In this document: positions 1 through 14,998 of the stretch, one piece after another
Numbering within the stretch: position 1 is the first letter of the stretch
Layout: each line of letters begins with the position of its first letter
IMG/VR virus record: IMGVR_UViG_2634166457_000017
Coordinates: 1 to 15,535 of that record
Length of the DNA stretch: 15,535 nt
From: a virus
Taxonomy: Duplodnaviria > Heunggongvirae > Uroviricota > Caudoviricetes
Direction: 5' to 3' (one strand)
Position numbers and translations under genes: made by a program
Notes under the pieces: generated by a model
What the model was told of the DNA's origin: nothing
The model's input: only the letters and a program-made list of their open reading frames with translations
The model's database searches: none

Positions 1-1227
1 GTGGCAGGCACAAACAAACTGAGTGATAAAAAATTAAGATCGCTTCTCGGCGTAAAGCGGGATTCAGTAATTACCATTGCGGATGGTGAAGGATTAAGCA
101 TCAAAGTATCCATGATGGGATGCATTAGTTGGGTTTTCTCTTATCGTCTTGGTGGGCGTGGGAGCAAGTTAGAGCGCATTGTTCTTGGGCGTTACCCTGA
201 CATGTCGTTGAAAATGGCTAGGGAGAAGAGGGAACTATGCCGAAAATGGTATGCGGACGGGCTGAATCCACGACTTGAATTAGAACTTAGCGCAGAAGAA
301 AACCTTAACCCCGTAACTGTCCATGATGCCCTTGAATATTGGCTAATTCATTACGCAAGAAAAAAACGTAGTGACGAGGAACTCGTGCGGGCGCAATTAC
401 GTAAGCATATTTATCCGCGTCTTGGCCACTATCCGTTATCCCGGTGTGAAACGCGTCACTGGGTGACATGTTTTGATGAAATTAACCAGTCCAGGCCAAT
501 CACTGCCGGGCGAATGTTCCAGATTTGTAAACAGGCCTTAAGATTCTGCAAGGTTCGCCGTTATGCCTCATGTGATGCCCTGGCTTTTATGACAATCCAG
601 GATGTAGGGCAACCATCGGGGCAGCGTGATAGGGTGCTGTCAGATAGTGAGTTAGCTGATGTATGGCGGTGTACTTATAGCGATGAACAGCAATTTTATT
701 ATCTTCGTCTGCTTAAGTTGCTTGTGCTGTTTGGGGCGCGAACAATGGAAGTAAGATTATCCCGGTGGAGTGAATGGGATTTTCAGTCATGGATTTGGAC
801 GGTTCCTAAAGAACACAGCAAAACTCGTGAAAAAATAGTTCGTCCAATTCCAGAGGGCATTCGCCCATGGATTGAGGATCTAAAAAAGGAAACGGGAAAA
901 ACAGGAATTGTACTGGGTGAAGAACGTTCCCGCCAGGCTGCTTCGCTTAAAGGGCGTAGGCTATACAAAGATTTTCATCATAATGAGCCATGGACGCTTC
1001 ACGATTTGCGCAGAACATTTTCTACAGGTTTAAATAATATGGGTATTGCGCCACATATTGTAGAGCTTTTACTTGGTCATGCATTGCCGGGGGTGATGGC
1101 TATTTATAACCGTAGTCTGTACTTACCTGAGAAAATGGATGCGTTGAATAAGTGGTATGGCCGATTAGAACTTCTGGCTGGTAATCATCAAAATGTGGTG
1201 CTGTTACCTGTATCGAATAGAGGTTAA
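1..1227 (+). CDS. int: Tyrosine recombinase / phage integrase (P4-like, arm-binding N-terminus)
   Basis: 408-aa ORF; C-terminal catalytic region shows the R..HxxR..Y pattern (WTLHDLRRTFST, LLGHA, AIYNRSLY). N-terminus resembles P4-family integrase arm domain. GTG start sits at the window edge, so the true start could lie upstream. Confidence 0.85.
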   Translation: MAGTNKLSDKKLRSLLGVKRDSVITIADGEGLSIKVSMMGCISWVFSYRLGGRGSKLERIVLGRYPDMSLKMAREKRELCRKWYADGLNPRLELELSAEENLNPVTVHDALEYWLIHYARKKRSDEELVRAQLRKHIYPRLGHYPLSRCETRHWVTCFDEINQSRPITAGRMFQICKQALRFCKVRRYASCDALAFMTIQDVGQPSGQRDRVLSDSELADVWRCTYSDEQQFYYLRLLKLLVLFGARTMEVRLSRWSEWDFQSWIWTVPKEHSKTREKIVRPIPEGIRPWIEDLKKETGKTGIVLGEERSRQAASLKGRRLYKDFHHNEPWTLHDLRRTFSTGLNNMGIAPHIVELLLGHALPGVMAIYNRSLYLPEKMDALNKWYGRLELLAGNHQNVVLLPVSNRG

Positions 1228-1318
1228 ACTGATATTACGGGCATAGGTCGGCCAACCGAAAAGCGGGAAACCCTACCCGCCTGGCTCGTAAAGTATTTAG
1301 GGCGTTGAGGGTAGCGCA

Positions 1319-2248
1319 ATGGCTAACGACATTAAAATTCCTTTTCAGTATTGCAACATTGAGCGTGCATCAAGATTGCTGGGTTGCGAGATTAGCGATC
1401 TCGTGAATTTAGGTGTTACTAAAAAAATAGCTTTATGCCTAAATTTATTTGATGCTCGCGCTGTTTTATATATGAATACTGATAGCAAGTCTGCAACTGC
1501 TTGGTTTGATACCAGAAATGCAAAATCGACCACATCACTGATGGGGAACAATATTACTGAATACTCCAGGTTTCATCTTTTCAGATACAATTATAACGAG
1601 GAGACAGATGAAACTATACACGCGCCTTTATTCGGTCAAGACTCAGAAAACGGATGCTTTAGCTCTATTGGTAGGGCTTATGGATTGTGGCGCCTTTGGA
1701 GTGGGCTGGAAGAACTACAAAATTTTGGAGAGTATTCCCTAAGTGGTTTTGAATTAACCCCGTGTCATCCAGAAACTGATAATCCTGCCGTACAACTTTT
1801 AATGGTTGGTGAAGATAGTGATTATGATGAAGAAGACGATCAAATATTAAAGAATAATATTTCTATAAATGACTTGTGGATTACCGCTCATGATATAAGG
1901 CGACTTCTTGACTGTGGTGGCGATTATTTTACGCTAACAGATAATTTTGAATCTGTAGAACCTCACAAGATGAATGGCAATGAAATTGTGCAACATTCTG
2001 CTGAAAGACATGCAAGAAATCGAGAGCAAATTTTAATGGTTGCTATGCGTTTTAAAGAAGAGCAACAAAATACTTTTAATGAGACCTGCAGAAAAAACGA
2101 TGGAACGATTAACTATTCTGCTTGGGCTCGTGAGTTGATCGCCAGACCTGATTGGTTCATTAATAGTGAATTGCCAATAAAAACAGAAACAAAAATAGCA
2201 GCAATTTTAAGTAATGCTCATAAGAGGCCGAGTGAAAGGTCGCAGTAA
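1319..2248 (+). CDS. Hypothetical protein, AT-rich accessory gene of unknown function
   Basis: 309-aa ORF with GAGGGT Shine-Dalgarno 6 nt upstream of ATG; visibly more AT-rich than flanking genes; no recognisable catalytic motif (no P-loop, no HNH, no DEAD); possible helix-turn-helix-like N-terminus (ERASRLLGCEISDLVNLGVTKK), acidic cluster DSDYDEEDD. Confidence 0.6.
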   Translation: MANDIKIPFQYCNIERASRLLGCEISDLVNLGVTKKIALCLNLFDARAVLYMNTDSKSATAWFDTRNAKSTTSLMGNNITEYSRFHLFRYNYNEETDETIHAPLFGQDSENGCFSSIGRAYGLWRLWSGLEELQNFGEYSLSGFELTPCHPETDNPAVQLLMVGEDSDYDEEDDQILKNNISINDLWITAHDIRRLLDCGGDYFTLTDNFESVEPHKMNGNEIVQHSAERHARNREQILMVAMRFKEEQQNTFNETCRKNDGTINYSAWARELIARPDWFINSELPIKTETKIAAILSNAHKRPSERSQ

Positions 2249-2267
2249 GCCTTACTCATATACTCCT

Positions 2268-2306
2268 AAGCATACTGATATATTTATAAGCATTATCAGT
2301 ATGTTT
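2268..2306 (+). terminator. Possible intrinsic terminator after accessory ORF
   Basis: Perfect 10-bp inverted repeat CATACTGATA (2271-2280) / TATCAGTATG (2294-2303) followed by TTT; loop is long (13 nt), so weak call. Confidence 0.3.
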
Positions 2307-2385
2307 CTATGATTACTACTGTGTTTTAATCCAGTATTAAAGATTGCAAAATAGCCTCCGCAATCATAGATACAGTGGAGGCAAT

Positions 2386-2670
2386 ATGACAAAAACCACA
2401 TTCATTCCCCCAACTCCAGAACAACGCCGGGCGCTTCTTGAAGAATACGGTTTTGAATTTGATCGCCGTATCCGTGAAAAGGAATGCCAGGAAATCACCA
2501 GTCTGTCGCGCTCAACTCGCTTCAAAATGGAAAATGAAGGGCGTTTCCCGCCTCGTTGTCATTTCGGGCGCAATAGCTGTGCGTGGCTTCTCTCTGATGT
2601 GCTTTGGTGGGTTCGTAACCCACCTGCTGTAGATAAAGTCAATAATCCGTACGGTAAGAAAGCTGCATAA
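2386..2670 (+). CDS. alpA: AlpA-family transcriptional regulator / excisionase-like DNA-binding protein
   Basis: Translation contains ITSLSRSTRFKMENEGRFP...WLLSDVLWWV, matching the AlpA winged-helix signature. Start placed at ATG 2386 (GGAGG 4 nt upstream) rather than the ORF-track start at 2344. Confidence 0.75.
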   Translation: MTKTTFIPPTPEQRRALLEEYGFEFDRRIREKECQEITSLSRSTRFKMENEGRFPPRCHFGRNSCAWLLSDVLWWVRNPPAVDKVNNPYGKKAA

Positions 2671-2850
2671 GGGGGGAGTTATGACACATAAAACAAAGGC
2701 GACCGGGGGCGGTCGCCAATGGGAAAACACTAAACATAAGCCCGAACATCATAGCGGTTTGCTGACTGGTGGGCAATCTGTCAGGTTTGCACCAATGACT
2801 CCAGGTTTAACCGAGGGTCATTATGGTGAATATGCTGACTTGCTGGTGGG

Positions 2851-3048
2851 CTATTCCTGCTCTTTAACATCGCCATTCTGCGATGTTTTCCAGGTATGCG
2901 ATCCCATTTTTGTGCGCCTGTACTCTTTAAGGAACTTCTCAAGGACAAACGCACATGGCGCAAATCTTTCCTGTTCTTGTTCGCTTACCGCATTTTTGCG
3001 TTGTTTTTTCCTGGATGAAGATAATTTCTTTAATGATTTGTCAGTCAT
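2851..3048 (-). CDS. Small basic hypothetical protein (uncertain)
   Basis: 65-aa minus-strand ORF in the same frame as the downstream RHH gene; weak SD; lysine/arginine-rich N-terminus. Could be a shadow ORF. Confidence 0.25.
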   Translation of the reverse strand: MTDKSLKKLSSSRKKQRKNAVSEQEQERFAPCAFVLEKFLKEYRRTKMGSHTWKTSQNGDVKEQE

Positions 3049-3300
3049 CGTAGATACCTGTAACCCTGTGCGCCACAGTTCACCGCACCACGGCGCTGGT
3101 GATGGTTACTCCTGCTCTTTGGCCTTGCGGCGCTTTAGTTCTGCTGGAGCTAATCAATCATTGTATATTAGACGTGGGATCTTTTTTTCATCGCTCCTGC
3201 ATATACGCTCATTACTGACGTGTTCATTGCTGATGCAATTTCCTAGGAGGAAAACATATAAAAACAGGGAGCCAAACCAGTATATTTTTTGCTGCATGAG

Positions 3301-3486
3301 TTATTCCTTATCAGCCTCTTTGTTTTTTTTACGCTGGCGGCGTTTGATTTCGCCGCGCATGGCAGTAACGATAAATTGCGCGTCTGTTTCGTTTTCTTCT
3401 TTTACCAAATTCATTTCGCTTAAAACTTCTAGAGGTACTCTAGCTGTTTTTTGTTGTGACTTGTTGTTGGTTGTACCTGTTGGCAT
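3301..3486 (-). CDS. Ribbon-helix-helix (Arc/MetJ-like) transcriptional repressor
   Basis: 61-aa ORF with strong SD (TAAGGAG, 7-nt spacer); segment RVPLEVLSEMNLVKEENETDAQFIVTAMRGEIKRR follows the beta-strand/helix/helix pattern of Arc repressor (EVL..EEN..); divergent from the early operon and adjacent to a palindromic operator. Confidence 0.6.
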   Translation of the reverse strand: MPTGTTNNKSQQKTARVPLEVLSEMNLVKEENETDAQFIVTAMRGEIKRRQRKKNKEADKE

Positions 3487-3551
3487 CTCTGTTCTCCTTA
3501 CTGTTAGGTGGTGTTCAGTATACGGAGAAAAAAAATAAAAAAAGACTTGAA

Positions 3552-3596
3552 GTGCAAGTCACCTAAAAGTAACCTAGATTTCAAGGTGACTTGCAC
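3552..3596. promoter_or_regulatory. Palindromic operator in divergent promoter region
   Basis: Perfect 13-bp inverted repeat GTGCAAGTCACCT (3552-3564) / AGGTGACTTGCAC (3584-3596) with 19-bp spacer, between the minus-strand RHH gene and the + strand early operon; candidate -35 TTGAAG at 3548-3553 overlaps the left half-site. Confidence 0.55.
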
Positions 3597-3674
3597 CAAA
3601 AAGCAACGCCCCGCACTGTTGGAGCAGTAACGGGGCATCTAACCACCAACGATAACGATAGTATCGAGGTAGCT

Positions 3675-3878
3675 ATGTTAAATCATACCACACACCCGCA
3701 AGGGCGGGATTCGCACAACCTGAATAAATATATCTGGCGTTTTATCGCTCTGAGCACGGCACAACCGCGCGTGATTACCATTGAGGCCACCAGCGAACAG
3801 GAAGCACGTCAGCAATCTCCTGATGGCTGCGTGATGGTATTCGCTGCCCGTATCCGTCAGGGGGGGAGCCATGCATGA
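3675..3878 (+). CDS. Small protein, possibly Icd-like host cell division inhibitor (P4 kil-region type)
   Basis: 67-aa ORF from ATG 3675 with GAGGT SD; pattern YIWRFIAL...EATSEQEARQ...FAARIRQG resembles small Icd-like proteins of P4-type elements as I recall them; position upstream of primase matches the P4 early operon layout. The ORF-track start at 3591 is TTG inside the operator and is unlikely. Confidence 0.4.
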   Translation: MLNHTTHPQGRDSHNLNKYIWRFIALSTAQPRVITIEATSEQEARQQSPDGCVMVFAARIRQGGSHA

Positions 3879-4098
3879 TGACCGTTATTTTAAATCAATG
3901 AGCCATGCAGAAAATGCACTGACTAACAGTGAATGCTTGCGGCAAATATTGCTTATCTGGCTTGATGGTTTAAGTGATGCGCCGGAAGATGAGCGTGAAT
4001 CTAATCTTGCTGGTGCGTTTATTTCATTACTCGATACGGTAATCGTCGAATTAAATAAAGCGATCGAAATTCACGATAAAAAAATAAACGCGGAATAA
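3871..4098 (+). CDS. Hypothetical small protein
   Basis: 75-aa ORF, GGGGGGAG SD immediately upstream, overlaps previous stop by 8 nt (translational coupling). Confidence 0.45.
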   Translation: MHDDRYFKSMSHAENALTNSECLRQILLIWLDGLSDAPEDERESNLAGAFISLLDTVIVELNKAIEIHDKKINAE

Positions 4099-4103
4099 AA
4101 ACC

Positions 4104-4391
4104 ATGAAACAGAAAATTTCTGGCTTTACTGCCAGCGGCCCCGCTCGTCCTGAATTTATGAACGGCGATATTTACCGCGATAAATATGGCGGTACGGTAA
4201 CGATTAAAGGCGTGGCAGAACGGCGCATCACCTACCGCCGTGAAGGTTATGAATATGACTGCGTGATGCCTGTTTATCAATTCCGGCGTGATTTTAAGCT
4301 GGTGGGCCATCGTAAAGCCGTAAATAAGAAACGTGCAGCAAGCTATATCCGCAAAATCCGTGAAATGCTGGTCGCAGGGGGTAAGAAATGA
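4104..4391 (+). CDS. Hypothetical small basic protein
   Basis: 95-aa ORF; stop overlaps primase start (ATGA), suggesting coupled translation. Confidence 0.5.
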   Translation: MKQKISGFTASGPARPEFMNGDIYRDKYGGTVTIKGVAERRITYRREGYEYDCVMPVYQFRRDFKLVGHRKAVNKKRAASYIRKIREMLVAGGKK

Positions 4392-6136
4392 AACTGGCAC
4401 CGAACGTAAAAAAACAACCACGCGGAATAAAACACAAAGACACAGAGGTAATTATTTTCGCGGGTAGTGATGCGTGGGCACATGCAAAACAGTGGCAGGA
4501 GCAGGACGGCCCCGCATCCGGCGATGATGTGCCGCCTGTGTGGCTTGGGCCAAATCAGCTTGCCGAACTGGATGCGCTGAAAATTGTTCCGGATGGGAAA
4601 AAACGCGTAAGGCTGTACCAGGCCGGAGAACTGGATTTAGTGGAGACCAAAAAGATTGGTCAGAAGCTGGCGGCGGCAGATATTCAGGATGCGAATTTTT
4701 ACCCCGAAGGGATGCACGGACAGAAATGTGAGAACTGGCGGCGCTATCTGAATGCTGAGCGTGAAAATATTGCCGCAGGGATTACCATGCCGGAACAGAA
4801 AAAATCACAACTTTCACAGATGGCAGACAGTGAACGGGCACAGCTTCTTGCTTCCCGCTTTGATGGTGTCTGCGTCCATGCAGAAAGTGAAATCGTTCAC
4901 GTATGGCGTGACGGGGTATGGTGTCCGGTCAGCACAATGGAGCTGAGCCGCGAAATGGTGGCGGTTTATTCAGAACACGGGGCCACGTTCAGCAAGCGTG
5001 CAATTAATAACGCCGTTGAAGCATTAAAAGTTATTGCCCAGCCAATGGGGGAGCCGTCCGGCGATTTGCTGCCGTTCGCCAATGGTGCGCTTGACCTGAG
5101 AACAGGAGAATTTTCCCCGCACCAGCCGGATAACTGGCTCACCACCCACAACGGCATTGAGTACACGCCGCCAGTACCAGGGGAGAATATCCGCGACAAC
5201 GCGCCAAACTTTTATAAATGGCTTGATCACGCTGCCGGAAAAGACCCACACAAGATGATGCGCATATGTGCCGCGCTCTACATGATTATGGCGAACCGGT
5301 ACGACTGGCAGATGTTCATTGAGGCCACCGGAGACGGCGGGAGCGGTAAGAGTACATTCACGCACATTGCCACACTACTTGCCGGAAAACCGAACACGGT
5401 GAGCGCCGAGATGACATCGCTTGATGATGCTGGTGGGCGTGCGCAGGTTGTCGGGAGCCGCCTTATCGTTCTGGCAGACCAGCCGAAATACACGGGCGAG
5501 GGCACGGGCATCAAGAAAATCACGGGCGGCGACCCCGTGGAGATTAACCCGAAATATGAAAAGCGATTCACGGCGGTAATCAGGGCGGTTGTGCTGGCAA
5601 CCAATAATAACCCGATGATATTCACCGAACGGGCCGGAGGCGTGTCACGTCGTCGGGTGATATTCCGGTTCGATAACATCGTAAGCGAGGCAGAAAAAGA
5701 CAGGGAGCTACCGGAAAAGATAGCGGCAGAAATCCCTGTCATTATCCGCCGCTTGCTGGCGAACTTTGCCGACCCTGAAAAGGCACGGGCTTTACTCATT
5801 GAACAGCGAGACGGTGATGAAGCACTGGCGATAAAGCAGCAGACGGATCCGGTTATTGAGTTTTGCCAGTTCCTTAACTTTCTGGAAGAAGCACGCGGCC
5901 TGATGATGGGCGGCGGCGGTGACTCTTCCAGGTACACGACCAGAAACAGCCTTTACCGCGTCTATCTGGCGTTTATGGCGTATGCCGGCAGGAACAAGCC
6001 GCTGAACGTGGCTGAGTTCAGCAAAGCTATGAAGCCAGCGGCGAAAGTTTACGGACATGAATATATAACGCGCAGGATTAAAGGGATTACGCAAACCAAC
6101 GTGACAACAACAGACGACTGCGACGCGTTTTTATAA
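4388..6136 (+). CDS. Phage/plasmid primase-helicase, P4 family (D5_N-like plus SF3 NTPase)
   Basis: 582-aa ORF; Walker A GDGGSGKST; GGGGG SD upstream; immediately followed by iteron array. No obvious TOPRIM EGYATA motif seen, so it may be helicase/initiator only. Confidence 0.85.
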   Translation: MKLAPNVKKQPRGIKHKDTEVIIFAGSDAWAHAKQWQEQDGPASGDDVPPVWLGPNQLAELDALKIVPDGKKRVRLYQAGELDLVETKKIGQKLAAADIQDANFYPEGMHGQKCENWRRYLNAERENIAAGITMPEQKKSQLSQMADSERAQLLASRFDGVCVHAESEIVHVWRDGVWCPVSTMELSREMVAVYSEHGATFSKRAINNAVEALKVIAQPMGEPSGDLLPFANGALDLRTGEFSPHQPDNWLTTHNGIEYTPPVPGENIRDNAPNFYKWLDHAAGKDPHKMMRICAALYMIMANRYDWQMFIEATGDGGSGKSTFTHIATLLAGKPNTVSAEMTSLDDAGGRAQVVGSRLIVLADQPKYTGEGTGIKKITGGDPVEINPKYEKRFTAVIRAVVLATNNNPMIFTERAGGVSRRRVIFRFDNIVSEAEKDRELPEKIAAEIPVIIRRLLANFADPEKARALLIEQRDGDEALAIKQQTDPVIEFCQFLNFLEEARGLMMGGGGDSSRYTTRNSLYRVYLAFMAYAGRNKPLNVAEFSKAMKPAAKVYGHEYITRRIKGITQTNVTTTDDCDAFL

Positions 6137-6144
6137 TTTTAGAC

Positions 6145-6380
6145 AAAAGCCCTCTACCCCTTCTACCTTAAGAAAATAATTGCATATATTTCATATGGAT
6201 AGGTTTGGTAGATGGCAGGTAGAAGGCACTTAAAAGCCCTCTACACCCTCTACCATAATTCAGGGCATTTGTGAGGGGGTGGTAGATGGCAGGTAGAGGG
6301 CCAAAAAAGCCATCTACCCCGCTGAAAGCCGCGCCATTACTGACCTGAAAGATGATTAGGTAGAGAGGTAGAGGAGGTGC
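6145..6380. repeat. Iteron array / putative origin of replication
   Basis: Eleven copies of hexamer TCTACC/GGTAGA in about 230 bp, organised as alternating-orientation 20-23 bp units (e.g. GGTAGATGGCAGGTAGAAGG at 6207-6226 and GGTAGATGGCAGGTAGAGGG at 6281-6300; AAAAGCCCTCTACCCCTTCTACC at 6145-6167 and AAAAGCCCTCTACACCCTCTACC at 6232-6254), with an AT-rich stretch 6170-6198; directly downstream of the initiator gene. Confidence 0.65.
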
Positions 6381-6422
6381 ACCACAACCCAAAACTTTTT
6401 AAACACGAGGGTAAAAATAAAA

Positions 6423-6680
6423 ATGCACACTACAGAAAAACTTAACAATCAGAAGAAACCACATAACCGCGCCATTGAGTTTACAGAGCACTTGCTGAGG
6501 GTGGCGATAAAAATCATCGACCGCAACGCGGGAGAAGGATACGCGAAAGCCCATCCCGAACTGGTAAGCGCATTCATGACAACGGCAGCGGCAAACTTTG
6601 CCACGCTGACAGAACGGGAGATTGCCGAAGCGGAACAGGTGACAACCATCAACGTTAAAACCGGAGAGCAGACAGCATGA
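6423..6680 (+). CDS. Hypothetical protein
   Basis: 85-aa ORF; stop overlaps the SSB start (ATGA). Confidence 0.5.
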   Translation: MHTTEKLNNQKKPHNRAIEFTEHLLRVAIKIIDRNAGEGYAKAHPELVSAFMTTAAANFATLTEREIAEAEQVTTINVKTGEQTA

Positions 6681-7102
6681 CGGCACAGATAGCGGCACAC
6701 GGGCGGCTGGTGGACGACCCACAGGTAAAACAGACCAGCAAGGGCACACCCATGACGCTGGCACGGATGGCGGTATCCGTACCGTGCCATAACGCAGACG
6801 ACGGACAGGCGACGCTATGGCTTGCCGTAACTGCCTTTGGTAAGCAGGCCGACGCGCTGGCAAAGCACCACAAAGGCGAACTGGTGAGCGTGGCGGGTAA
6901 CATGCAGGTAAGCCAGTGGACAGGCCAGAACGGCGAAACGCGGCAGGGCTGGCAGGTTATCGCAGACAGTATAATCAGTGCGCGAACCGTGCGACCAGGT
7001 GGCAGGAAAGGCCAACAAGGGCAGGCTACTGACGCACTGAACAGGGCAAAACAACAGACAGGCCAGCACGATGACCCATACGGGGATGAAATACCGTTTT
7101 AG
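6677..7102 (+). CDS. ssb: Single-stranded DNA-binding protein (SSB-like, short)
   Basis: 141-aa ORF; OB-fold-like core aligns by eye with E. coli SSB (LWLAVTAFGKQADALAKHHKGELVSVAGNMQVSQWTGQNGETRQGW); C-terminus DDPYGDEIPF resembles the SSB acidic tip DDDIPF. Confidence 0.7.
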   Translation: MTAQIAAHGRLVDDPQVKQTSKGTPMTLARMAVSVPCHNADDGQATLWLAVTAFGKQADALAKHHKGELVSVAGNMQVSQWTGQNGETRQGWQVIADSIISARTVRPGGRKGQQGQATDALNRAKQQTGQHDDPYGDEIPF

Positions 7103-7120
7103 CGATAACAGGGGAGATAC

Positions 7121-7369
7121 ATGCCAGTGACATTTGAAGAAGTTCAGCAACATAAAAAGTTTCATGGTTTTGATGATCTGGAAACCACGACAGCAAAAAA
7201 ATATCGCCGTCTGCTTTCTTCCGATGCGTTATTTGTTGTGGATCATCATGATTTTCTGCGCAGCTCACTGACCGGGGAAATTTTCGCAACCAACCGTGAG
7301 CAGGTGGAAGCGATGATCGAATATCTGTGGAAAATAAGACGCAGAATGCGGGATCCCGTGAAACAATAA
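7121..7369 (+). CDS. Hypothetical protein
   Basis: 82-aa ORF with GGGGAG SD; followed by an intrinsic terminator. Confidence 0.55.
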   Translation: MPVTFEEVQQHKKFHGFDDLETTTAKKYRRLLSSDALFVVDHHDFLRSSLTGEIFATNREQVEAMIEYLWKIRRRMRDPVKQ

Positions 7370-7378
7370 AGCGATAAA

Positions 7379-7407
7379 GGCCTGGATTTTTTCCAGGTCT
7401 TTTTTTC
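7379..7407 (+). terminator. Rho-independent terminator ending the replication module
   Basis: Stem CCTGGA (7381-7386) / TCCAGG (7392-7397) with 5-nt loop, followed by TCTTTTTTT. Confidence 0.6.
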
Positions 7408-7423
7408 AGGTTTTGTAAATTAT

Positions 7424-7453: not shown

Positions 7454-7643
7454 ATTCTGGCTGATGTTTACATACTGATTTTTATGTATATCTTGAAGAG
7501 TGGCACTCAGACGTGAGCCGCCACAATGCCGCCTGACCCCCTGCGCGATGCCGGGTTGATCTGCGAGATGTCGAGAGTGTCGGGCGGCGCTCCCTCCGTG
7601 TTGGTTTCACGTCCTGAATCTTAACCAATACGAGAAAACCTTC

Positions 7644-8789
7644 ATGAAGAAATTAATCGAACTCCGCCAGCAAAAAACCGCCCTGAAAAACCAGATGCGC
7701 TCCCTGCTGGAAAAAGCAGACAGTGAAAACCGCAGCCTGAACGATGACGAGGGCAAACAGTTTGATGAACTGCGTGCAAAAGCTGATTCCCTCGACACAG
7801 AAATCTCCCGTCTTGAAGCTGTTGCGGATGAAGAACGTAACCAGCCAGGTGTTTCCGTCGAAGAGAAAATCACCAAAGACGAATTGCGCTCTTATATTCT
7901 GACCGGGGAAACCCGCAACCTGTCCGGCAGTGTCCCGGCTGATGGTGGTTATACGGTTATCCCGGAACTGAACAGAGAAATTATGCGTCAGCTTTCTGAT
8001 GAATCGGTGATGCGTAAAATCTGTACCGTTAAAACCATTCACAGCAATGAATTTAAGCAACTGGTTTCTACCGGGGGGGCGGTCGTTGAACACGGCGAAG
8101 AAGGTGCGGCACGTAACCAGACGGCAACACCAAAACTGAATGAAGTCAGTATCCGCCTGTATCCGATTTACGCTTACCCGAAAACCACTCAGGAAATTAT
8201 CGATTTTTCCGAAGTCGATATTATGAGCTGGTTATCTTCTGAAATTGGCGACACTTTCGTTGATACCGAAGAAACGGATCTGGTTTCCGGTGACGGCGAG
8301 AAAAAAGCTAAAGGCTTCCTGGCTTTCCCGCGCACTGCGGACAATGACAAAACCCGTCCTTTCGGTACGCTCCAGACGAAAAAAGTTACTGGCAGTCTCA
8401 GCGCCGACATGCTGATTGACCTGAAATTTACGCTACGCAATAAGTACCGCAAAAAAGCTGTATGGGTGATGAACTCAAATACAGCCGCCTCCGCACAAAA
8501 ACTGAAAAATGCCACTGGTGATTACATCTGGCGCGATCGTTTACAGGCTGGTGATCCTGATTCTCTGCTGGGGCTTCCGGTTGAATATCTGGAATTTATG
8601 CCGGACGGTGTGATTGCAGTAGGTGACTTTAAGCGCGGTTATTTCATCGTTGACCATGAAACCGGTACGCGAACCCGTCCGGACTTCAGCGAACCCGGAT
8701 TCATTAACATCTATACCCAGAAATATCTGGGCGGTGGTGTGGTGGATTCGAACGCCATCAAGATTCTGGAAATTCAGGCTGGCAAGTAA
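7644..8789 (+). CDS. Major capsid protein, HK97 family (with N-terminal delta/scaffold-like coiled coil)
   Basis: 381-aa ORF; N-terminal charged coiled-coil segment typical of the HK97 gp5 delta domain; gene context capsid-protease-portal. Confidence 0.85.
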   Translation: MKKLIELRQQKTALKNQMRSLLEKADSENRSLNDDEGKQFDELRAKADSLDTEISRLEAVADEERNQPGVSVEEKITKDELRSYILTGETRNLSGSVPADGGYTVIPELNREIMRQLSDESVMRKICTVKTIHSNEFKQLVSTGGAVVEHGEEGAARNQTATPKLNEVSIRLYPIYAYPKTTQEIIDFSEVDIMSWLSSEIGDTFVDTEETDLVSGDGEKKAKGFLAFPRTADNDKTRPFGTLQTKKVTGSLSADMLIDLKFTLRNKYRKKAVWVMNSNTAASAQKLKNATGDYIWRDRLQAGDPDSLLGLPVEYLEFMPDGVIAVGDFKRGYFIVDHETGTRTRPDFSEPGFINIYTQKYLGGGVVDSNAIKILEIQAGK

Positions 8790-8795
8790 TGAGCA

Positions 8796-8820
8796 AAGGG
8801 GGCTTCGGCCTCCTTTTTCA
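8796..8820 (+). terminator. Intrinsic terminator/attenuator after major capsid gene
   Basis: AAGGGGGC (8796-8803), TTCG loop, GCCTCCTT (8808-8815) forming an 8-bp stem with one G-U pair, then T-run. Confidence 0.5.
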
Positions 8821-8838
8821 GCTTTATGGAGTACACCG

Positions 8839-9399
8839 ATGAAAAATACCGATTTTGAAATCCGTACATCTGAACTGACCGCCAGCGATAAAAAACTGGT
8901 GGGTTATGCCGTTCGCTGGAACAGTCTTTCAGAAATTATCTGGGATGAGTTCCGCGAACAATTCACGCCGGGGGCTTTTGCTGACTATCTGGCTGCGGGT
9001 AATGATGTGCGCTGCCTGTATGAGCATGACTGTACCCGACTGCTGGGGCGTACCAAATCCGGCACACTGGTACTGACTGAGGATAACACCGGGTTACGTT
9101 TTGAACTGACACCGCCGGATACCCAGCTTGGGAAAGATGTGCTTACGCTGGTGGAGCGAGGCGACATTACAGGAATGAGCTTTGGCTTTCGCGCATTATG
9201 TGAGGAGTGGAATATCGCGCAAAAACCGTATCTGCGTACTGTTACCGCCGCAGAACTCAGGGAAATCACGATAACGTCGATGCCTGCTTACCCCGAATCT
9301 GGTGTGGAGATTGCCCACCGTTCGTTGTTTGCACAGCACCCTGAATTACGCCCGACAGGAAATAATCGTCATCGCTGGGCTGAACTGGCGGGGTTGTGA
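8839..9399 (+). CDS. Prohead maturation protease, HK97 family (S78-like)
   Basis: 186-aa product from ATG 8839 (GGAG SD); N-terminal LVGYAVRWNSLSE...FTPGAF typical of HK97 prohead protease. The ORF-track extension to 8623 overlaps the capsid gene and is not used. Confidence 0.8.
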   Translation: MKNTDFEIRTSELTASDKKLVGYAVRWNSLSEIIWDEFREQFTPGAFADYLAAGNDVRCLYEHDCTRLLGRTKSGTLVLTEDNTGLRFELTPPDTQLGKDVLTLVERGDITGMSFGFRALCEEWNIAQKPYLRTVTAAELREITITSMPAYPESGVEIAHRSLFAQHPELRPTGNNRHRWAELAGL

Positions 9400-9400
9400 T

Positions 9401-10615
9401 ATGTGGTGGCCTTTTAGTCGTAAAAAAAGCGATCTGCGTAACCTGTCCATTGATGATTTTCTGGCGCTGTCCGGCGTACCGAATACCGGATCCGGAGAAT
9501 ATGTTTCTGCCGGGACGGCTGAATCATTGCCTGCAGTGATGAACGCGGTTTCTGTCATCGCTGAGGCGGTGGCCACGATGCCGTGTTATCTGTATCTGGT
9601 ACGTAATGACAAGGGCAGGGAGGCGCGGGAATGGCTGGACAGTCATCCGGTAGATATTCTGCTGAATGAGCAGCCTAATTCGTGCCAGACACCTTACCAG
9701 TTTAAACGCACAATGATGCGTCACTGCCTGCTGAACGGTAACGCCTATGCGGTTATTGAGTGGGGGCGGGACGGGCAGCCCAAATCACTTCATCCTTATG
9801 CACCGGGTTGTGTTGTACCGGAACGCACAGGCGCACACAAATACCGCTATACCATCACCGAACCCTATACAGGAACGGTGCGCACGTATTTACAGGAAGA
9901 AGTTTTGCATCTCCGCTATGCCTCGGATGATGGCTTTCTGGGGCGCTCCCCTGTCACGATTTGCCGTGAGGCGCTGGGGCTTGGCCTTGCTCAACAGCGC
10001 CACGGAGCCAGCATTATGAAAGATGGCATGATGGCGGCAGGGATTATCACGTCAGGCGAATGGCTGGACGGCGTGAAAGGTAAACAGGCATTAGATGCTC
10101 TGGAACGCTATAAGGGGGCGAAAAATGCCGGAAAAACGCCAATCCTTGAAGGGGGCATGGATTACAAGCAACTGGGGATGAGTAACCAGGATGCGGAATG
10201 GTTGGCCTCCCGTCGCTTCTCCATTGAAGACATTGCCCGTATGTTCAACGTGTCGCCGATTTTTCTTCAGGAATACAGCAACAGCACCTACAGCAATTTC
10301 AGTGAGGCAAGCCGCGCGTTTCTGACTATGACAATGCGTCCGTGGCTGGCGAACTTCGAACAGCAAATCAAGGCCGCTTTGCTGGTGGCTTCTCCCGTAC
10401 CTGGTACCCGTTATCTGGTTGAGTTTGATTCAGCCGATTTACTGCGCGCCACCCCTACCGAACGTTACGCCACGTATGAGAAAGGGATTAAGAACGGGAT
10501 CATGAATCCGAACGAAGCCCGTGAGCGTGAGGGAATGCCGCCGCGTGAAGGTGGCGACGAGTTCAGCCAGGCATGGAAGCAGACTGTGGAAATTAAAGGT
10601 GAAAAAGATGAGTGA
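9401..10615 (+). CDS. Portal protein, HK97 family
   Basis: 404-aa product from ATG 9401, 1 nt after protease stop; size and context fit an HK97-type portal. Confidence 0.8.
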   Translation: MWWPFSRKKSDLRNLSIDDFLALSGVPNTGSGEYVSAGTAESLPAVMNAVSVIAEAVATMPCYLYLVRNDKGREAREWLDSHPVDILLNEQPNSCQTPYQFKRTMMRHCLLNGNAYAVIEWGRDGQPKSLHPYAPGCVVPERTGAHKYRYTITEPYTGTVRTYLQEEVLHLRYASDDGFLGRSPVTICREALGLGLAQQRHGASIMKDGMMAAGIITSGEWLDGVKGKQALDALERYKGAKNAGKTPILEGGMDYKQLGMSNQDAEWLASRRFSIEDIARMFNVSPIFLQEYSNSTYSNFSEASRAFLTMTMRPWLANFEQQIKAALLVASPVPGTRYLVEFDSADLLRATPTERYATYEKGIKNGIMNPNEAREREGMPPREGGDEFSQAWKQTVEIKGEKDE

Positions 10616-10907
10616 AGACAAAATTACACCTGATGAAGTCAGGGCACATCTTCGCCTTGATGACTTTTCCGGAGAAGGCGAACTTCTGAAAATGTATACC
10701 GATGCGGCGCTGGAAGCCTGCCAGAAGCATATCGGGAAACGTTTTGAAGACGGGCTGGAATTTACCCCGGCAATACGTGTTGGTTGCCTGATGTACATCG
10801 CTTTCCTGTATGAGAACAGGGAAGCGGTTTCACCTGTGGAGCAGTCTGAACTGCCTATGGCTATTTCTGCGCTCTGGTCGGTTTATCGTGATGTGGGGGT
10901 GTACTGA
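10608..10907 (+). CDS. Head-tail connector protein (gp6-like)
   Basis: 99-aa product; N-terminal ITPDEVRAHLRLDDFSGEGELLKMYTDAA matches the conserved start of gp6-like head-tail connector proteins; AAAGGTGA SD; overlaps portal stop. Confidence 0.7.
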   Translation: MSEDKITPDEVRAHLRLDDFSGEGELLKMYTDAALEACQKHIGKRFEDGLEFTPAIRVGCLMYIAFLYENREAVSPVEQSELPMAISALWSVYRDVGVY

Positions 10908-11346
10908 TGCCGTGGCAACCATTAAGGCGATGCACTGAGCCGGGCTGTAATAAGCGCGTGAAGTCCGGCAAGTGTGAAGAGCACAGGCGGGCTGCATGGC
11001 GTGCAGAGGATGCCAGACGGGGACACCGCCGCGCGCGCGGGTATTCCCGACAGTGGGACAAATACCGCGCCCTGTACCTGAGCAAAAACCCGTTATGCGT
11101 GCGTTGTCTGGCTAAGGGGATTTATACGCCAGCTCTTGTGGTGGATCACATCATTCCCATCAATGGCGCGGTGATGTTCTCTTCTGGCCTGAGTGGAATC
11201 ACCAGGCATTGTGCCAGACGTGCCACAACCGTAAGACGACACGGGAAGATCCAGCCACGAAAGCGAACCGTAAGGCGGGCATGTATCGCGAGCAGGAAGA
11301 ACGGGCGGCACATCGTAACGACTGGATGTATGGCGATGATGACTGA
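10907..11346 (+). CDS. HNH endonuclease, disrupted by an apparent -1 frameshift near 11165-11172 (possible pseudogene or sequencing error)
   Basis: Frame of ORF 10907..11515 encodes CVRCLAKGIYTPALVVDHIIPING, then loses the motif; the frame shifted by one base encodes GDVLFWPEWNHQALCQTCHNRKTTRED and stops at 11344-11346. The D-H and N/H halves of the HNH motif are therefore in different frames. Confidence 0.7.
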
Positions 11347-11634
11347 ACAGGAGCAAAACAGGCTGATACGTGGACTGATAAGGCAGCGTGACTTATGGAA
11401 GACACAGGAGACAGGGCACAAAGCCAACAGGACAGGACGCACAGAACGCACCACAGCGAAGCGATTAACCGACCGTGACCGCGAGGTCATGGAATGTTTT
11501 CGCAATCGCTGGTGAAGCCGTCAGAGGGGGTGGGGGAGGTTTTCAGGACGAAACCGTCCCTGCCGGACACCGACCGCCTCCTCAAATTTTTGTGCACGGG
11601 AATTTTTTTGAAAATAATTGGGCGAAAAAAGAAC
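11347..11634. other. Candidate cos / terminase recognition region between HNH and terS
   Basis: Location between HNH and small terminase as in HK97-type phages; purine-rich direct repeats ACAGGAGACAGGGCACA (11404-11420) and ACAGGACAGGACGCACA (11427-11443); G-rich tract GAGGGGGTGGGGGAGG (11524-11539); small hairpin GGACG-AAAC-CGTCC (11546-11559). Confidence 0.3.
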
Positions 11635-11991
11635 ATGGCAAGACCACCAAAAGCCCCCGCTTACCTGGATGAAATCGCGGTCAGGCAGTGGAAGGAAAAA
11701 TCGCGCCAGCTTTCCGGGCGGGAAGACCTTACCCCCGCCGACTGGAGCAATCTGGAACTGTATTGCGTTAACTACTCCATATACCGCAAAGCCGTCGAAG
11801 ACCTTGCGACGCGCGGCTTCAGCATTGTTAACAGTCAGGGCAGCGAGAGCAGAAACCCCGCCCTGAGCGCAAAGGCTGACGCGGAAAGAATAATGATCAA
11901 AATGGCTTCTTTGCTGGGTTTTGACCCGGTAAGCCGCCGCAGAAATCCACCGGAAACAGAGGAAGAGGACGAGCTTGACCGCCTGGCATGA
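11635..11991 (+). CDS. terS: Terminase small subunit, P27 family
   Basis: Translation MARPPKAPAYLDE...LYCVNYSIYRKA...SRNPALSAKAD...LLGFDPVSRRR matches the P27-family TerS pattern. An alternative upstream start at ATG 11494 (with GAGG SD) cannot be excluded. Confidence 0.7.
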   Translation: MARPPKAPAYLDEIAVRQWKEKSRQLSGREDLTPADWSNLELYCVNYSIYRKAVEDLATRGFSIVNSQGSESRNPALSAKADAERIMIKMASLLGFDPVSRRRNPPETEEEDELDRLA

Positions 11992-13636
11992 GTACGCAGA
12001 AGGCGTAAAAAACGGCAAAATTACGGCCTGTAAACGACTGAAACAGGCCGTTAAACGGTATTTTTATGACCTTGAAAACCCCCTTTACACGTTCGATCCT
12101 GAGGTCGTGGAGCGGTTTATTGCCTTTTCCAGGGTGTGCCCGCACGTAAAAGGCGCAATGCGCGGTAGCCCCATTGAGCTGGAGCCGTGGCAGCAGTTCG
12201 CCTTTGCGTGCATCCTGGGCTTTAAGGTTAAGGCCACCGGACGGCGCAAATACACCAGCGCATTCATTGAAGTACCGCGAAAAAATGCCAAATCCACGGT
12301 CGCCGCTATCCTGGCTAACTGGTTTCTGGTTATGGAAAACGGGCAGCAGGATATTTACACCGCCGCCGTGAGTCGTGATCAGGCGCGGATCGTGTTTGAT
12401 GATGCGCGTCAGATGTGCCTTTTATCCCGACCGTTACGAAAGCGGGTAAATATTCAGGCACACAAGGTGATACACACGAAAACCAACAGCCTGTTAAAGC
12501 CACTGGCAGCAAAAGCGGCAACCATTGAAGGTACAAACCCGAGTCTTGCCATTGTGGATGAATATCACCTGCACCCTGACAACGGGGTTTATTCCGCGCT
12601 TGAACTGGGAATGGGGGCGCGTCCGGAGGGGTTATTATTTGCCATCACCACATCGGGGAGCAACGTTGTTTCAGCCTGTAAACAACACTACGACTATTGC
12701 TGCCAGATACTGGATGGTGAAGAGGTGAACGAATCCATGTTCGTGCTGATTTACGAGCTGGATGATGAAAGCGAGGTTGACGATCCGGCGATGTGGATAA
12801 AGGCGAATCCCAATATCGATGTTTCCGTCGATCGTGAAAAACTGGCCTCAACCATCCAGAAAGCGCGGGGTATTCCGTCGCAGTGGGTGGAAATGCTCAC
12901 CAAGCGATTCAATATCTGGTGTCAGGGGGCTACGCCGTGGATGGGTAACGGTGCATGGGCGGAGTGCGCCGGAATGTTCGCGGAGGCGGATTTATACGGG
13001 CAGGAGTGCTACGCGGGGCTGGACTTATCATCAACCAGCGATATTTCCAGCGTGTGCTATGCCTTTCCGGTCGGTAAAAAGATTATGCTGGTTTCCCGTC
13101 ACTATCTGCCGGAATTTCAGCTACAGAACCCTGCCAATAAAAACCGCGCCATCTATCGCCAGTGGGCAAAGGCGGGCTGGATACGCACAACACCGGGTGA
13201 CTGCATTGATTATGACCGTATCCGTGATGACATCATGGCGGATGCAGAGAATTTCAATATCAGGCTGGTGGGTTTCGATACATGGAACGCCACGCACCTG
13301 AGGACGCAGCTACAGGGCGCGGGATTTGAGGTGGAGCCGTTCCCGCAAACATACCTTCGTTTCAGTCCGGCGGCGAAATCGTTCGAAGTTTTTGTTAACC
13401 GGAAGGTGATTGTGCATCGTGGTGATCCGGTGCTGGCCTGGTCAATGAGTAATGTTGTGATGCAGAGTGACGCGAACGCCAATATCAAGCCGAACAAGAA
13501 AAAATCATCCAACAAGATAGACCCGAGCGTTGCGGCGCTGATGGCGTTTGGCACATTCCAGGCAGAGCATGAGGAATTTGCATTCGATATGAGCGACAGC
13601 CACAAAGAGCGGCTTGCGGCGTTTGATGGGGTATAA
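11975..13636 (+). CDS. terL: Terminase large subunit
   Basis: 553-aa ORF; Walker A-like VPRKNAKST and Walker B-like LAIVDEYH; TTG start with AGAGGA SD, overlapping the terS end. Confidence 0.9.
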   Translation: MTAWHEYAEGVKNGKITACKRLKQAVKRYFYDLENPLYTFDPEVVERFIAFSRVCPHVKGAMRGSPIELEPWQQFAFACILGFKVKATGRRKYTSAFIEVPRKNAKSTVAAILANWFLVMENGQQDIYTAAVSRDQARIVFDDARQMCLLSRPLRKRVNIQAHKVIHTKTNSLLKPLAAKAATIEGTNPSLAIVDEYHLHPDNGVYSALELGMGARPEGLLFAITTSGSNVVSACKQHYDYCCQILDGEEVNESMFVLIYELDDESEVDDPAMWIKANPNIDVSVDREKLASTIQKARGIPSQWVEMLTKRFNIWCQGATPWMGNGAWAECAGMFAEADLYGQECYAGLDLSSTSDISSVCYAFPVGKKIMLVSRHYLPEFQLQNPANKNRAIYRQWAKAGWIRTTPGDCIDYDRIRDDIMADAENFNIRLVGFDTWNATHLRTQLQGAGFEVEPFPQTYLRFSPAAKSFEVFVNRKVIVHRGDPVLAWSMSNVVMQSDANANIKPNKKKSSNKIDPSVAALMAFGTFQAEHEEFAFDMSDSHKERLAAFDGV

Positions 13637-13641
13637 CGAGA

Positions 13642-13926
13642 ATGAGCGAAACCGAACTACTAAAAATAATCCGCCGCATTACCGGAATCAGCCAGGAAGC
13701 AGGCAAACAGGAGGCCACGCAGCCGGACAGCGTGATAGCCGAAAATTACGCGCGTGTGGTGGCTGAGGTGATGCGCCGTGATGGTATTGAGCTTAACGGC
13801 GTGGATATGCGAGACATACGGATCCGAGTTCTTGAAATGCTGGCCTACAATCGCCGCGTGGAGATGTACCGGGAGAAAGAAAAAATTACTTACCACTGGA
13901 AGAAGCCGGAGCGGTTACGGCGGTAA
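13642..13926 (+). CDS. Hypothetical protein (possible head completion/adaptor function)
   Basis: 94-aa ORF immediately after terL; no recognisable motif. Confidence 0.45.
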   Translation: MSETELLKIIRRITGISQEAGKQEATQPDSVIAENYARVVAEVMRRDGIELNGVDMRDIRIRVLEMLAYNRRVEMYREKEKITYHWKKPERLRR

Positions 13927-13931
13927 CTTTG

Positions 13932-14204
13932 ATGACTGATAACGTAGATTTGCGTCATCATAAAAATCAATTGGTTACGATTACAGGCGGCGTTGTAGCC
14001 TGTTACGATTATCGTAATCCCTTTCTGTATGACAGGGTGGCAGGTATGGTGATTTCCGCCCCTCCTTTGCAAATTGACAACGTAGTGTGTGATGTCGAAT
14101 TAACTCCGTACGTTAAACGTACGGAGTTCCCGGCAGGCTTAGGTTCCGACGAAATTCGTCGACACCTCCCGGCAGGAACAGCGAGAATTACGTCGCTGAT
14201 GTAG
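13932..14204 (+). CDS. Hypothetical protein
   Basis: 90-aa product from ATG 13932 (ORF-track start 13929 is TTG); last ORF of the island; weak RBS. Confidence 0.4.
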   Translation: MTDNVDLRHHKNQLVTITGGVVACYDYRNPFLYDRVAGMVISAPPLQIDNVVCDVELTPYVKRTEFPAGLGSDEIRRHLPAGTARITSLM

Positions 14205-14998
14205 CCTACGAAATTTTCGCAGGTTAATTATCTATCTGCTTAATCGCTAACCCACTGATTTTTATGATGACTCAAATTTGAAGCATCTTTGTTTACGTTG
14301 ATATTGTGTCAAAGCCCTTTTTCGGGCTTTGGCCTAACCCGCTGATATTTTCGGAAACAGCCATCGACTGAGGCCGGAGTAACCGACTATCTTTGAGATA
14401 GTCAGATGTACGAAATTTGTGCGGGACTAAAAGTCCCGCGCAAATTCACTACATCACCGTAATGGTTATGCAGTCCACCAGCAACCATAACGATTTCCGT
14501 TACTGTTGATGTGCTTTTTTGCTGGTAAGGCGTAATCCGTTGATTGTTCCACAAACCTCAATTTGAGGAAGCCGGAAAACTCACCCGCCAGATTCTGAAT
14601 GGTGAAAATCACCGGGGATCTGAATAGGCATTTCCTCTATGGAGGTCGCACCGTTTTCGGGAGAAGGTGCGATCATGTTCGTCATACCGGTTCCGTTGAA
14701 ATGAAATAGCCCTGTATGGGCATCATCACCATGCAGGGGATCAAAATCTCTGTAGCTTCATGTTGCCGGGACCGCCAGCCTCGCCAAATTTTTGCGTTTG
14801 TGAAAAACGAAAATTATTACGTGCTTTGCCCTCTCCTGTTTCTGATGTTGTATACTCGCGGCCTTCTAATTGTGCTGGTGCTTTTTTGAGATTGTGGCGC
14901 TGTGTATCGATCCGTATATCATTCGGTGTATCACTTTTGATAAATTGCTACGTGTGAATTTGTTTTTAACTGACAAAAATCAGTGGGTTATGTGAATT

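Follow-up and report, generated by a model that had tools for sequence, protein, structure and literature searches.

The locus examined here raises a question of identity: is an integrated element that encodes capsid and packaging proteins, but no tail and no lysis functions, a satellite that builds its own heads, or what is left of an element of another kind? The window, that is the whole stretch of 15,535 nucleotides deposited as IMG/VR record IMGVR_UViG_2634166457_000017, has the same sequence as in the assembly of E. coli M114, and its features are collected in Table 1. We conclude with high confidence that it is a capsid-forming phage-inducible chromosomal island (cf-PICI) of about 15.2 kb, integrated by its Int protein in the first codons of hpt. 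It is an ordinary member of the described cf-PICI family at a known insertion site. The first-pass annotation, which had proposed a capsid-forming satellite, was right in its interpretation, but the reading is not novel, cf-PICIs having been described in 2022-23 and hpt PICIs in 2023.

Table 1. Features of the 15,535-nucleotide window, with the evidence for each
Feature	Positions	Strand	Evidence or remark
Tyrosine integrase (Int), hpt-site-specific	1..1227	+	Arm-DNA-bind_3, Phage_int_M, Phage_integrase domains
int-alpA RNA motif, Rfam RF02996	1236..1302	+	55.2 bits; gathering score 35.8
309-aa accessory gene, int-alpA variable slot, 38% GC	1319..2248	+	phrog_7144 only
AlpA regulator/excisionase	2386..2670	+	Phage_AlpA, E = 6e-12
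Leftward unit	2698..3486	-	YlcI/YnfO-like gene, 65-aa gene, strong terminator
Strong terminator	2698-2717	-	terminator scan
65-aa gene	2851-3048	-	phrog_21027, E = 6e-45
61-aa YlcI/YnfO-like gene	3301-3486	-	phrog_949, E = 2e-18
Icd-like gene, 75-aa gene and DUF4222 gene, head of replication operon	3675..4391	+	family matches: NF033153, phrog_6196; DUF4222 E = 1e-24
Replication initiator, P4-family primase C-terminal region / SF3 helicase	4388..6136	+	D5_N, DUF5906, Pox_D5, TIGR01613
Origin of replication, 11 TCTACC iterons around AT-rich spacer	6145..6375	.	motif count
85-aa gene, SSB and 82-aa gene	6423..7369	+	phrog_1231, phrog_1957, SSB family
SSB	6677-7102	+	E = 3e-17
HK97-fold major capsid protein (MCP)	7644..8789	+	Phage_capsid, E = 2e-61
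Prohead serine protease (S78)	8839..9399	+	63% identical to EcCIEDL933
Portal protein	9401..10615	+	Phage_portal, E = 7e-93; 81% identical to EcCIEDL933
gp6-like head-tail connector	10608..10907	+	TIGR01560, phrog_40; 57% identical to EcCIEDL933
Disrupted HNH endonuclease, out-of-frame fusion to 61-aa gene	10907..11515	+	1-bp deletion at 11167
61-aa gene, homologue of EcCIEDL933 gene 1792	11330-11515	+	fused to frameshifted HNH
Candidate cos region, hnh/orf61-terS gap	11516..11634	.	conservation and position
TerS, P27 family	11635-11991	+	Terminase_4, TIGR01558; 88% identical to EcCIEDL933
TerL	11975-13636	+	TerL_ATPase, TerL_nuclease; 93% identical to EcCIEDL933
Conserved 94-aa gene after terL	13642..13926	+	phrog_1561; 81% identical to EcCIEDL933
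91-aa orphan ORF, reality doubtful	13929..14204	+	only 2 matches in 5.8 billion proteins
attP right arm, with new upstream region for hpt	13965..14998	.	IHF-consensus sites, arm-type motifs
attR core ATGAAACATATTGTAGAAG, first 19 nt of hpt	14999..15017	+	repeat with attL in L001, L002, L004, L012
hpt, host target gene	14999..15535	+	Pribosyltran; comparison with K-12

The gene content carries this conclusion. Searches of Pfam, PHROGs and NCBIfam bore out the integrase, the AlpA regulator, the initiator with its iteron origin and the series of genes from capsid to TerL listed by the first-pass annotation, all of them on the + strand and in that order. The element thus joins an integrase, an AlpA-type regulator and a primase/replicase module to a capsid, prohead protease and portal of its own (63-81% identical to those of EcCIEDL933), a head-tail connector and both terminase subunits. 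No ORF of the window matched a tail, holin or endolysin family, as had been claimed. Such genes, had they lain just outside the island, were named beforehand as the mark of an ordinary prophage; in L004, a copy with 99.98% identity to the window, and in three relatives (L001, L002, L012), gcd adjoins int on the left and hpt and can follow on the right, so that tail and lysis genes are lacking outside the window too. The L004 island has a core-to-core length of 15,193 bp, and those of L002 and L001 one of 15,303-15,349 bp, within the att-bounded range of about 10-18 kb given for cf-PICIs (He et al. 2025; SatelliteFinder). This architecture fits the published cf-PICI definition, and the proteins are homologous to those of a characterised element. 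The head and packaging set had been called complete: the genes named are indeed present, but the head-closure/adaptor gene is absent and the HNH gene is frameshifted.

The characterised element is EcCIEDL933, the prototype cf-PICI of E. coli O157:H7 EDL933 (bioRxiv 10.1101/2022.09.08.507074; 10.1101/2025.02.11.637232), which is close to the window island in size (15.4-15.5 kb against 15.2 kb) and shares with it the order int, alpA, icd-like, DUF4222, initiator, origin, SSB, capsid, protease, portal, connector, hnh, 61-aa gene, terS, terL and 94-aa gene. Over the packaging module the amino-acid identity is 57-93%. The MCP matches the EcCIEDL933 protein of PDB entry 9gyi with E = 1e-186 and 75% identity, and its alignment with that protein indicates that the protease should cleave off its first ~95 residues; the EcCIEDL933 capsid is a T=4 shell of 47.5 nm that holds 15.5 kb. 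The spacer between hnh and terS is near-identical in the two islands: the hnh-terS stretch that includes 11516-11634 has a mean column identity of 95% over five islands, EcCIEDL933 among them, and only some 15 positions of the non-coding part distinguish it from EcCIEDL933, a conservation above that of most coding regions. The order hnh-cos-terS is that of HK97-type systems, and the position of the candidate cos region agrees with it. The 94-aa protein encoded after terL has 970 homologues, all unnamed, and is predicted to form a three-helix bundle (pLDDT 74) with no significant fold match in the PDB; the 91-aa ORF that follows gave zero matches in family searches.

The two islands differ in their attachment site (roxA-phoQ for EcCIEDL933, hpt here), and their integrases are only 47% identical. 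They differ as well in the C-terminal half of the initiator and in the iterons, which are TCTACC in the window island and TAACCCGCA in EcCIEDL933; over five related islands the iteron sequence co-varies with the initiator type. The iterons of the window, five forward and six reverse, stand out from the background, since HTCTACM occurs 20 times in the whole window against 6.3 expected, and 11 of the 20 matches fall in 6152-6373, directly 3' of the initiator gene. The window island also lacks the head-closure/adaptor gene, has a frameshifted HNH gene, and carries between int and alpA a 309-aa gene and the int-alpA RNA as extra elements. L001 and L012, both hpt-type islands, have this RNA too, and EcCIEDL933 and the SaT040 island lack it; whole-word searches of the literature on the int-alpA RNA, and on PICI together with hpt, returned nothing. 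The 309-aa protein has 21 homologues in Enterobacterales, zero matches in PADLOC, Pfam and NCBIfam, and an AF2 model (pLDDT 82) with no significant PDB fold match. Defence families of PADLOC were absent among all the unassigned ORFs. A 285-aa + strand ORF at 2681-3538 was not retained as a gene, since it matched no family, has an odd, antisense-like composition and overlaps the two minus-strand ORFs with PHROG matches.

The insertion had been placed beside hpt, and the att duplication proposed as a check on integration is present in every complete copy, as a direct repeat of 19 bp, ATGAAACATAYTGTAGAAG, identical to the opening 19 nt of hpt. The gene was correctly named, but the island lies inside it, in codons 1-7, and supplies a replacement 5' end. 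By sequence comparison its right arm gives hpt a new start codon, 5' UTR and upstream region, and hpt remains intact with an island-derived Ile4 in place of Thr4. The unoccupied K-12 site has C at position 11; in nearly all of 5425 matched genomes a test sequence carrying T aligns at best with one mismatch, which is consistent with the same C. The crossover would have occurred within TGTAGAAG of the attR core. All five window matches to the IHF consensus WATCARNNNNTTR lie in 13965-14998, against an expectation of 1.3 for the whole window, and the arm-type motifs TGTATCAC are found at 14906 and 14927; in the reconstructed attP the arm motifs stand at -111/-87 and +134/+146. The segment 14449-14998 also occurs, at 96% conservation, in a different island sharing the same Int. 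Among 5426 complete E. coli genomes, nine carry this Int at an identity of at least 99%; the flanks were checked for six of the copies, each of which lies between gcd and hpt. The left ~190 bp of the island, with attL and its doubled arm motif, fall outside the window. A 30-nt inverted repeat (13948-13977 and 14248-14277) at first suggested a mobile or invertible segment of small size; it is accounted for by IHF-consensus copies.

An attL/attR block at the hpt 5' end, with the replacement sequence carried in attP, is what characterises the hpt PICIs detected with TIGER (NAR Genom Bioinform 2023, PMC10111431), whose integrases belong to the clade related to 11capE, the HE-PICI integrase. The window island shares with them the integration at the 5' end of hpt with the identity block TATGAAACATA, the same attR ATT codon, the AAAATCAGTGGG element just upstream of the core and the size class (14-16 kb in E. 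coli and Salmonella); it also has the doubled 12-bp attP arms of the HE-PICI motif, ~85 bp upstream and ~134 bp downstream of the crossover. Its island-side arm sequence outside the core is unlike that of the listed examples, and the arm half-site is TGTATCAC instead of TGTATTGC. The same article makes no mention of capsid-forming PICIs and so leaves the type of its hpt elements unstated; in the available part of the TIGER supplements no naming of the islands of ATCC 43886 and M114 was found. The value of the window island beyond a correct annotation is small: it offers a clean representative of the hpt-site lineage.

Could these genes have another origin? All the head and packaging genes have phage homologues, and the likeness to HK97 is extensive: an HK97-fold capsid protein that loses its N-terminal part to a protease (shown for EcCIEDL933 and HK97), an S78 protease, a portal, a gp6-like connector and HNH-assisted packaging by TerS and TerL. 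Together with the YlcI/YnfO-like gene, of a type found in lambdoid prophages, they could be the remnant of an HK97-like temperate prophage whose tail, lysis and immunity genes were deleted. We hold this to be highly improbable, because the same 15-kb architecture recurs with clean chromosomal flanks at three att sites (hpt, roxA-phoQ and cspD-clpS), its TerL lineage is present in 534 of 5426 genomes (about 10% of the complete E. coli genomes), and, according to published work, no phage has more than six homologues of EcCIEDL933. No tail, lysis or immunity module stands beside the head genes; their order, permuted with respect to HK97, with the capsid first and the terminase last, matches that reported for the cf-PICIs of proteobacteria, and the T=4 capsid of EcCIEDL933 contrasts with the T=7 of HK97. 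Moreover, the left half, with its PICI/P4-like replication and regulation, is an int-alpA-primase module and not a phage immunity/replication region. This module, common to classical PICIs, would in turn suit a satellite of the classical PICI or P4-like type, one that modifies the capsids of its helper; the window island shares with EcCICFT073-type PICIs and P4 an iteron origin after the initiator gene, and would share with them the AlpA-dependent induction and the dependence on a helper. At hpt in strain HNSQ2209, the same Int, 309-aa gene and AlpA even accompany another cargo of 10.8 kb, with lambda-type capsid and decoration genes and TerS but neither portal nor TerL; one Int/att module thus bears a cf-PICI or a classical-PICI cargo. 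The classical elements, however, use helper capsid proteins and have no portal, protease, connector or TerL, all of which are present here and serve SatelliteFinder to separate cf-PICIs from PICIs; no ORF matched the P4 psu, delta or sid families in Pfam, PHROGs or NCBIfam. We therefore give this reading scant credence.

A different doubt bears on the state of this copy, which might be a decaying, immobile cf-PICI, a chromosomal passenger that keeps hpt functional; we regard this as possible, though not as the probable case. The HNH gene is intact in L001, L002 and L004 (146 aa in L004, 84% identical to the EcCIEDL933 HNH), and present but frameshifted in the window, where one base pair at 11167 is missing by comparison with L004; the first histidine of the HNH motif alone survives this deletion, and its Asn, second His and Cys pair are lost. 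In EcCIEDL933 each mutation in a packaging-module gene abolished transfer, or severely reduced it in the case of gene 1792, and HNH is essential; by analogy, if the deletion is real, the window copy would be unable to package itself unless HNH is provided in trans, possibly by a second cf-PICI or an HK97-like prophage. The deletion may be real or a sequencing error. It recurs in the Logan assembly of run SRR024322, a run that may or may not derive from the window's strain, and the resulting 202-aa fusion is recorded solely for E. coli M114; but the Logan assembly also has an indel in the portal G-run, which suggests error-prone reads. The other genes are intact, and only three differences in 15.5 kb separate the window from the copy with an intact HNH, so that any damage would be very recent.

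For the cf-PICI that we consider the island to be, a life cycle can be proposed from EcCIEDL933. A helper phage would turn on alpA, which is required for the induction of EcCIEDL933, and the island would excise and replicate from its own origin. The capsid protein, protease and portal would assemble small T=4 heads, into which TerS, TerL and HNH, cutting at cos upstream of terS, would pack unit-length island DNA. The connector would ready the head for the tails of the helper phage, which would likewise provide lysis. The formation of island-sized capsids from the island's own proteins, with helper tails sufficing, is established for EcCIEDL933 only. Reported in 13% of Enterobacteriaceae genomes, cf-PICIs carry DNA across species by joining their own heads to foreign tails.

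The absence of the head-closure/adaptor gene touches directly on this step. In EcCIEDL933 the gene sits between portal and connector; here the connector start overlaps the portal stop and leaves no room for it, and tblastn with the EcCIEDL933 protein finds no homologue in the window, L001, L002 or L004. The gene is also absent from the SaT040 island, and many relatives lack it. The orphan 91-aa ORF was discarded as a relocated version, being dissimilar to the EcCIEDL933 protein. The SatelliteFinder model counts the head-closure/adaptor among its 11 core components, and accepts elements lacking one or two of them (Type B with 10 of 11, 459 of 969 elements; Type C with 9). In a lineage devoid of the prototype's gene, the adaptor protein is probably borrowed from the helper or unneeded. 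Two separate proposals may be added, both speculative and in our opinion rather unlikely. The insertion places hpt under island upstream sequence, through which a satellite could influence purine salvage. The adaptor-less lineage, for its part, would take a head-closure protein as well as tails from the helper. Adaptor and connector are reported to determine tail specificity, and a common sub-lineage does without the former; if the second proposal is true, the tail compatibility of this lineage (the window island, ATCC 43886 and the SaT040 type) would be tied to the helper and not to the island.

The island that precedes hpt in the window is an uncharacterised copy of a known kind of element in a known site. 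[quoted passage not shown] Its genes form an array in one direction followed by hpt (see the table), with a gene order identical to that of EcCIEDL933, the prototype cf-PICI, which we mapped between roxA and phoQ in the EDL933 chromosome. The packaging proteins are 57-93% identical between the two islands, which bears out the first-pass annotation in its reading of a capsid-forming satellite. Among solved structures, the capsid protein matches PDB 9gyi best (E = 1e-186), and the aligned residues 1-380 of this chain are identical to the EDL933 gene product.

Features of the window (assigned with Pfam, PHROGs and NCBIfam unless otherwise indicated) and protein identity to EcCIEDL933
Feature	Position	Strand	Identity
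Tyrosine integrase	1-1227	+	47%
int-alpA RNA motif RF02996 (Rfam, 55 bits)	1236-1302	+	
309-aa gene	1319-2248	+	
AlpA	2386-2670	+	
Leftward unit	2698-3486	-	
Icd-like protein, 75-aa protein, DUF4222 protein	3675-4391	+	
Initiator, P4 primase-helicase type (D5_N/DUF5906/Pox_D5)	4388-6136	+	
TCTACC-type repeats	6152-6373	both	
SSB	6677-7102	+	
HK97-type capsid protein (MCP)	7644-8789	+	75%
S78 prohead protease	8839-9399	+	63%
Portal	9401-10615	+	81%
gp6-like head-tail connector	10608-10907	+	57%
HNH (identity: intact L004 copy)	from 10907	+	84%
61-aa protein			82%
Non-coding part of hnh-terS stretch	11516-11634		
TerS, P27 family	11635-11991	+	88%
TerL	11975-13636	+	93%
Conserved 94-aa protein	13642-13926	+	81%
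Right arm with IHF-consensus matches	13965-14990		
TGTATCAC arm half-sites (L004: 5567-5588)	14906-14934		
hpt	14999-15535	+	

By homology, the mechanism we propose for the island would be that of EcCIEDL933, whose induction by the helper needs alpA and whose transfer requires the helper tail genes and dispenses with the helper capsid and packaging genes. Mutation of each packaging-module gene abolished this transfer, and that of gene 1792 severely reduced it. The EcCIEDL933 capsid (T=4, 47.5 nm across) holds 15.5 kb, and the window island measures 15.2 kb. Between the end of hnh and terS, column identity averages 95% over five islands, and only about 15 positions in the non-coding part of this stretch differ from EcCIEDL933; the stretch is probably the cos region.

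A deleted HK97-like prophage, a classical PICI and a P4-like element were weighed against the cf-PICI reading; none of them fits a recurrent 15-kb architecture at three att sites, and they are also at odds with the PICI-type left half or with the presence of portal and TerL. No ORF of the window matched a tail, holin or endolysin family, the small ORFs of the 800-bp spacer before hpt included. Tail or lysis genes could have stood just outside the island, and we looked for them around a copy and relatives of it: in L004, a copy differing from the window at three positions in 15,535, gcd, cueO and speE lie left of int and hpt and can lie on the right, and the same flanks were found in ATCC 43886, Br_190_kylling and HNSQ2209. 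As these flanks are chromosomal genes, there is no hidden tail or lysis module.

The first-pass annotation had placed the insertion beside hpt rather than a tRNA gene. No tRNA gene was found in the window, but the island lies inside hpt, not beside it. Comparison of the unoccupied K-12 site with attL and attR reveals the att duplication that was looked for, a 19-nt repeat at both island ends, ATGAAACATA(C/T)TGTAGAAG, with which the hpt reading frame begins. The variable base is the chromosomal C in attL and T in attR. When the unoccupied site with T at this position (71 nt) was searched against 5425 genomes, it was found at an identity of at least 99% in only 2, and the best match was 95-99% identical in 5417; each of the listed hits spanned the full 71 nt with a single mismatch (98.6%). 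The scarcity of the T-carrying site argues that the T of attR is most likely island-derived, and strand exchange would then occur to its right, in TGTAGAAG. The published hpt PICIs share this identity block, and their attR likewise has the ATT codon (PMC10111431). The island thus gives hpt a new start codon, a new 5' UTR and a new upstream sequence, and the Hpt of island-bearing strains has Ile4 in place of Thr4, codon 4 being island-derived (14999-15010). Because the native upstream region is moved 15 kb off, transcription of hpt must start in island-supplied sequence or reach the gene by read-through.

The reconstructed attP contains co-oriented TGTATCAC motifs at -111/-87 and a pair spaced by 12 bp at +134/+146. 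This parallels the doubled arm motif of the HE-PICI attP, reported as HE-PICI-specific and lying 81 bp before and 132 bp after the centre, whereas the half-site there is TGTATTGC (PMC10111431). All five exact window matches to the IHF consensus WATCARNNNNTTR fall inside the right arm of about 1 kb, and one of them, 9-21 bp ahead of the att core, is also conserved in the hpt PICIs already published. The hpt site matched at 5488 places in 5425 records, so that it is split in about 63 of the 5426 complete genomes, and the integrase occurs at an identity of at least 99% in 9 of 5426 complete E. coli genomes. In E. coli HNSQ2209, an island at hpt (L012, 17808-28611) has the same Int, orf309, AlpA and attP arms but a different 10.8-kb cargo, with a RepA-helicase initiator, lambda-type capsid and decoration proteins and TerS, and without portal and TerL; cf-PICI and classical-PICI cargo can thus travel with one and the same integration module.

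The iteron origin noticed at first reading is real: 11 repeats in both orientations are clustered directly 3' of the initiator gene, and the window holds 20 motif matches against 6.3 expected. Across five related islands, the repeat at this position varies with the initiator type, being TCTACC with the primase of the window, GTGAACAG with another primase, AGTGGGGA with RepA helicases and TAACCCGCA with the DUF927 protein of EcCIEDL933, which is the pattern due from an initiator and its cognate origin.

The island lacks the head-closure ("adaptor") gene that EcCIEDL933 has between portal and connector, and its portal stop overlaps the connector start. The gene is also absent from ATCC 43886, Br_190_kylling and the SaT040-type islands at cspD-clpS; of the complete E. 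coli genomes, 534 have TerL of the window-island lineage and 355 have the EDL933-type head-closure gene. SatelliteFinder already classes adaptor-less elements as Type B, which have 10 of the 11 core components. The two small proteins encoded after terL do not resemble a replacement, the 94-aa one being a predicted three-helix bundle and the 91-aa ORF an orphan. The adaptor-less lineage may borrow head closure, too, from its helper.

The HNH gene of the window lacks one base pair at 11167 (GGCGGCGG to GGCGCGG), a deletion that shifts the frame after DHIIPING and joins it to the downstream 61-aa gene; the exact 202-aa fusion product is on record only for E. coli M114. The frameshift is possibly inactivating, and if the deletion is real, the window copy would be unable to package unless HNH were supplied in trans. 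It may also be a sequencing artefact. The Logan assembly of run SRR024322, which may or may not come from the window strain, has the same deletion, and a G-run of its portal gene carries an indel as well. Otherwise, the window and L004 differ by a single A in an A8/A9 run and by an A/C substitution (3527, 9338), the latter in the protease-portal region. In the protein cluster of the window HNH product (10907-11515), fragments of 57-84 aa named "HNH endonuclease, partial" come from very short contigs in many E. coli and E. albertii assemblies in public databases, which suggests that assemblies often break within the cf-PICI HNH gene, perhaps owing to several related islands per genome.

The 309-aa gene (38% GC, function not assigned) occupies the int-alpA slot, the place expected for immunity genes in PICIs. 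Homologues of its product occur in Enterobacter, Photorhabdus, Arsenophonus and Morganella; the AF2 model is confident, but neither a PDB fold match nor a PADLOC hit was found. RF02996, directly after the int stop, goes with the hpt-type int module; it recurs in L001, another island at hpt (7237-7303), and in L012 (19236-19302), whereas EcCIEDL933 and the SaT040 island gave no detectable match to it. The leftward unit between alpA and the icd-like gene contains a 61-aa YlcI/YnfO-like gene (phrog_949) and a 65-aa gene (phrog_21027, E = 6e-45), and its strong terminator abuts the alpA stop. The long + strand ORF that gene callers place across it (285, 316 and 247 aa in the window, L004 and EcCIEDL933, respectively) is probably spurious. 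Within the unit, the block 2917-3134 is kept at 70-74% even in EcCIEDL933.
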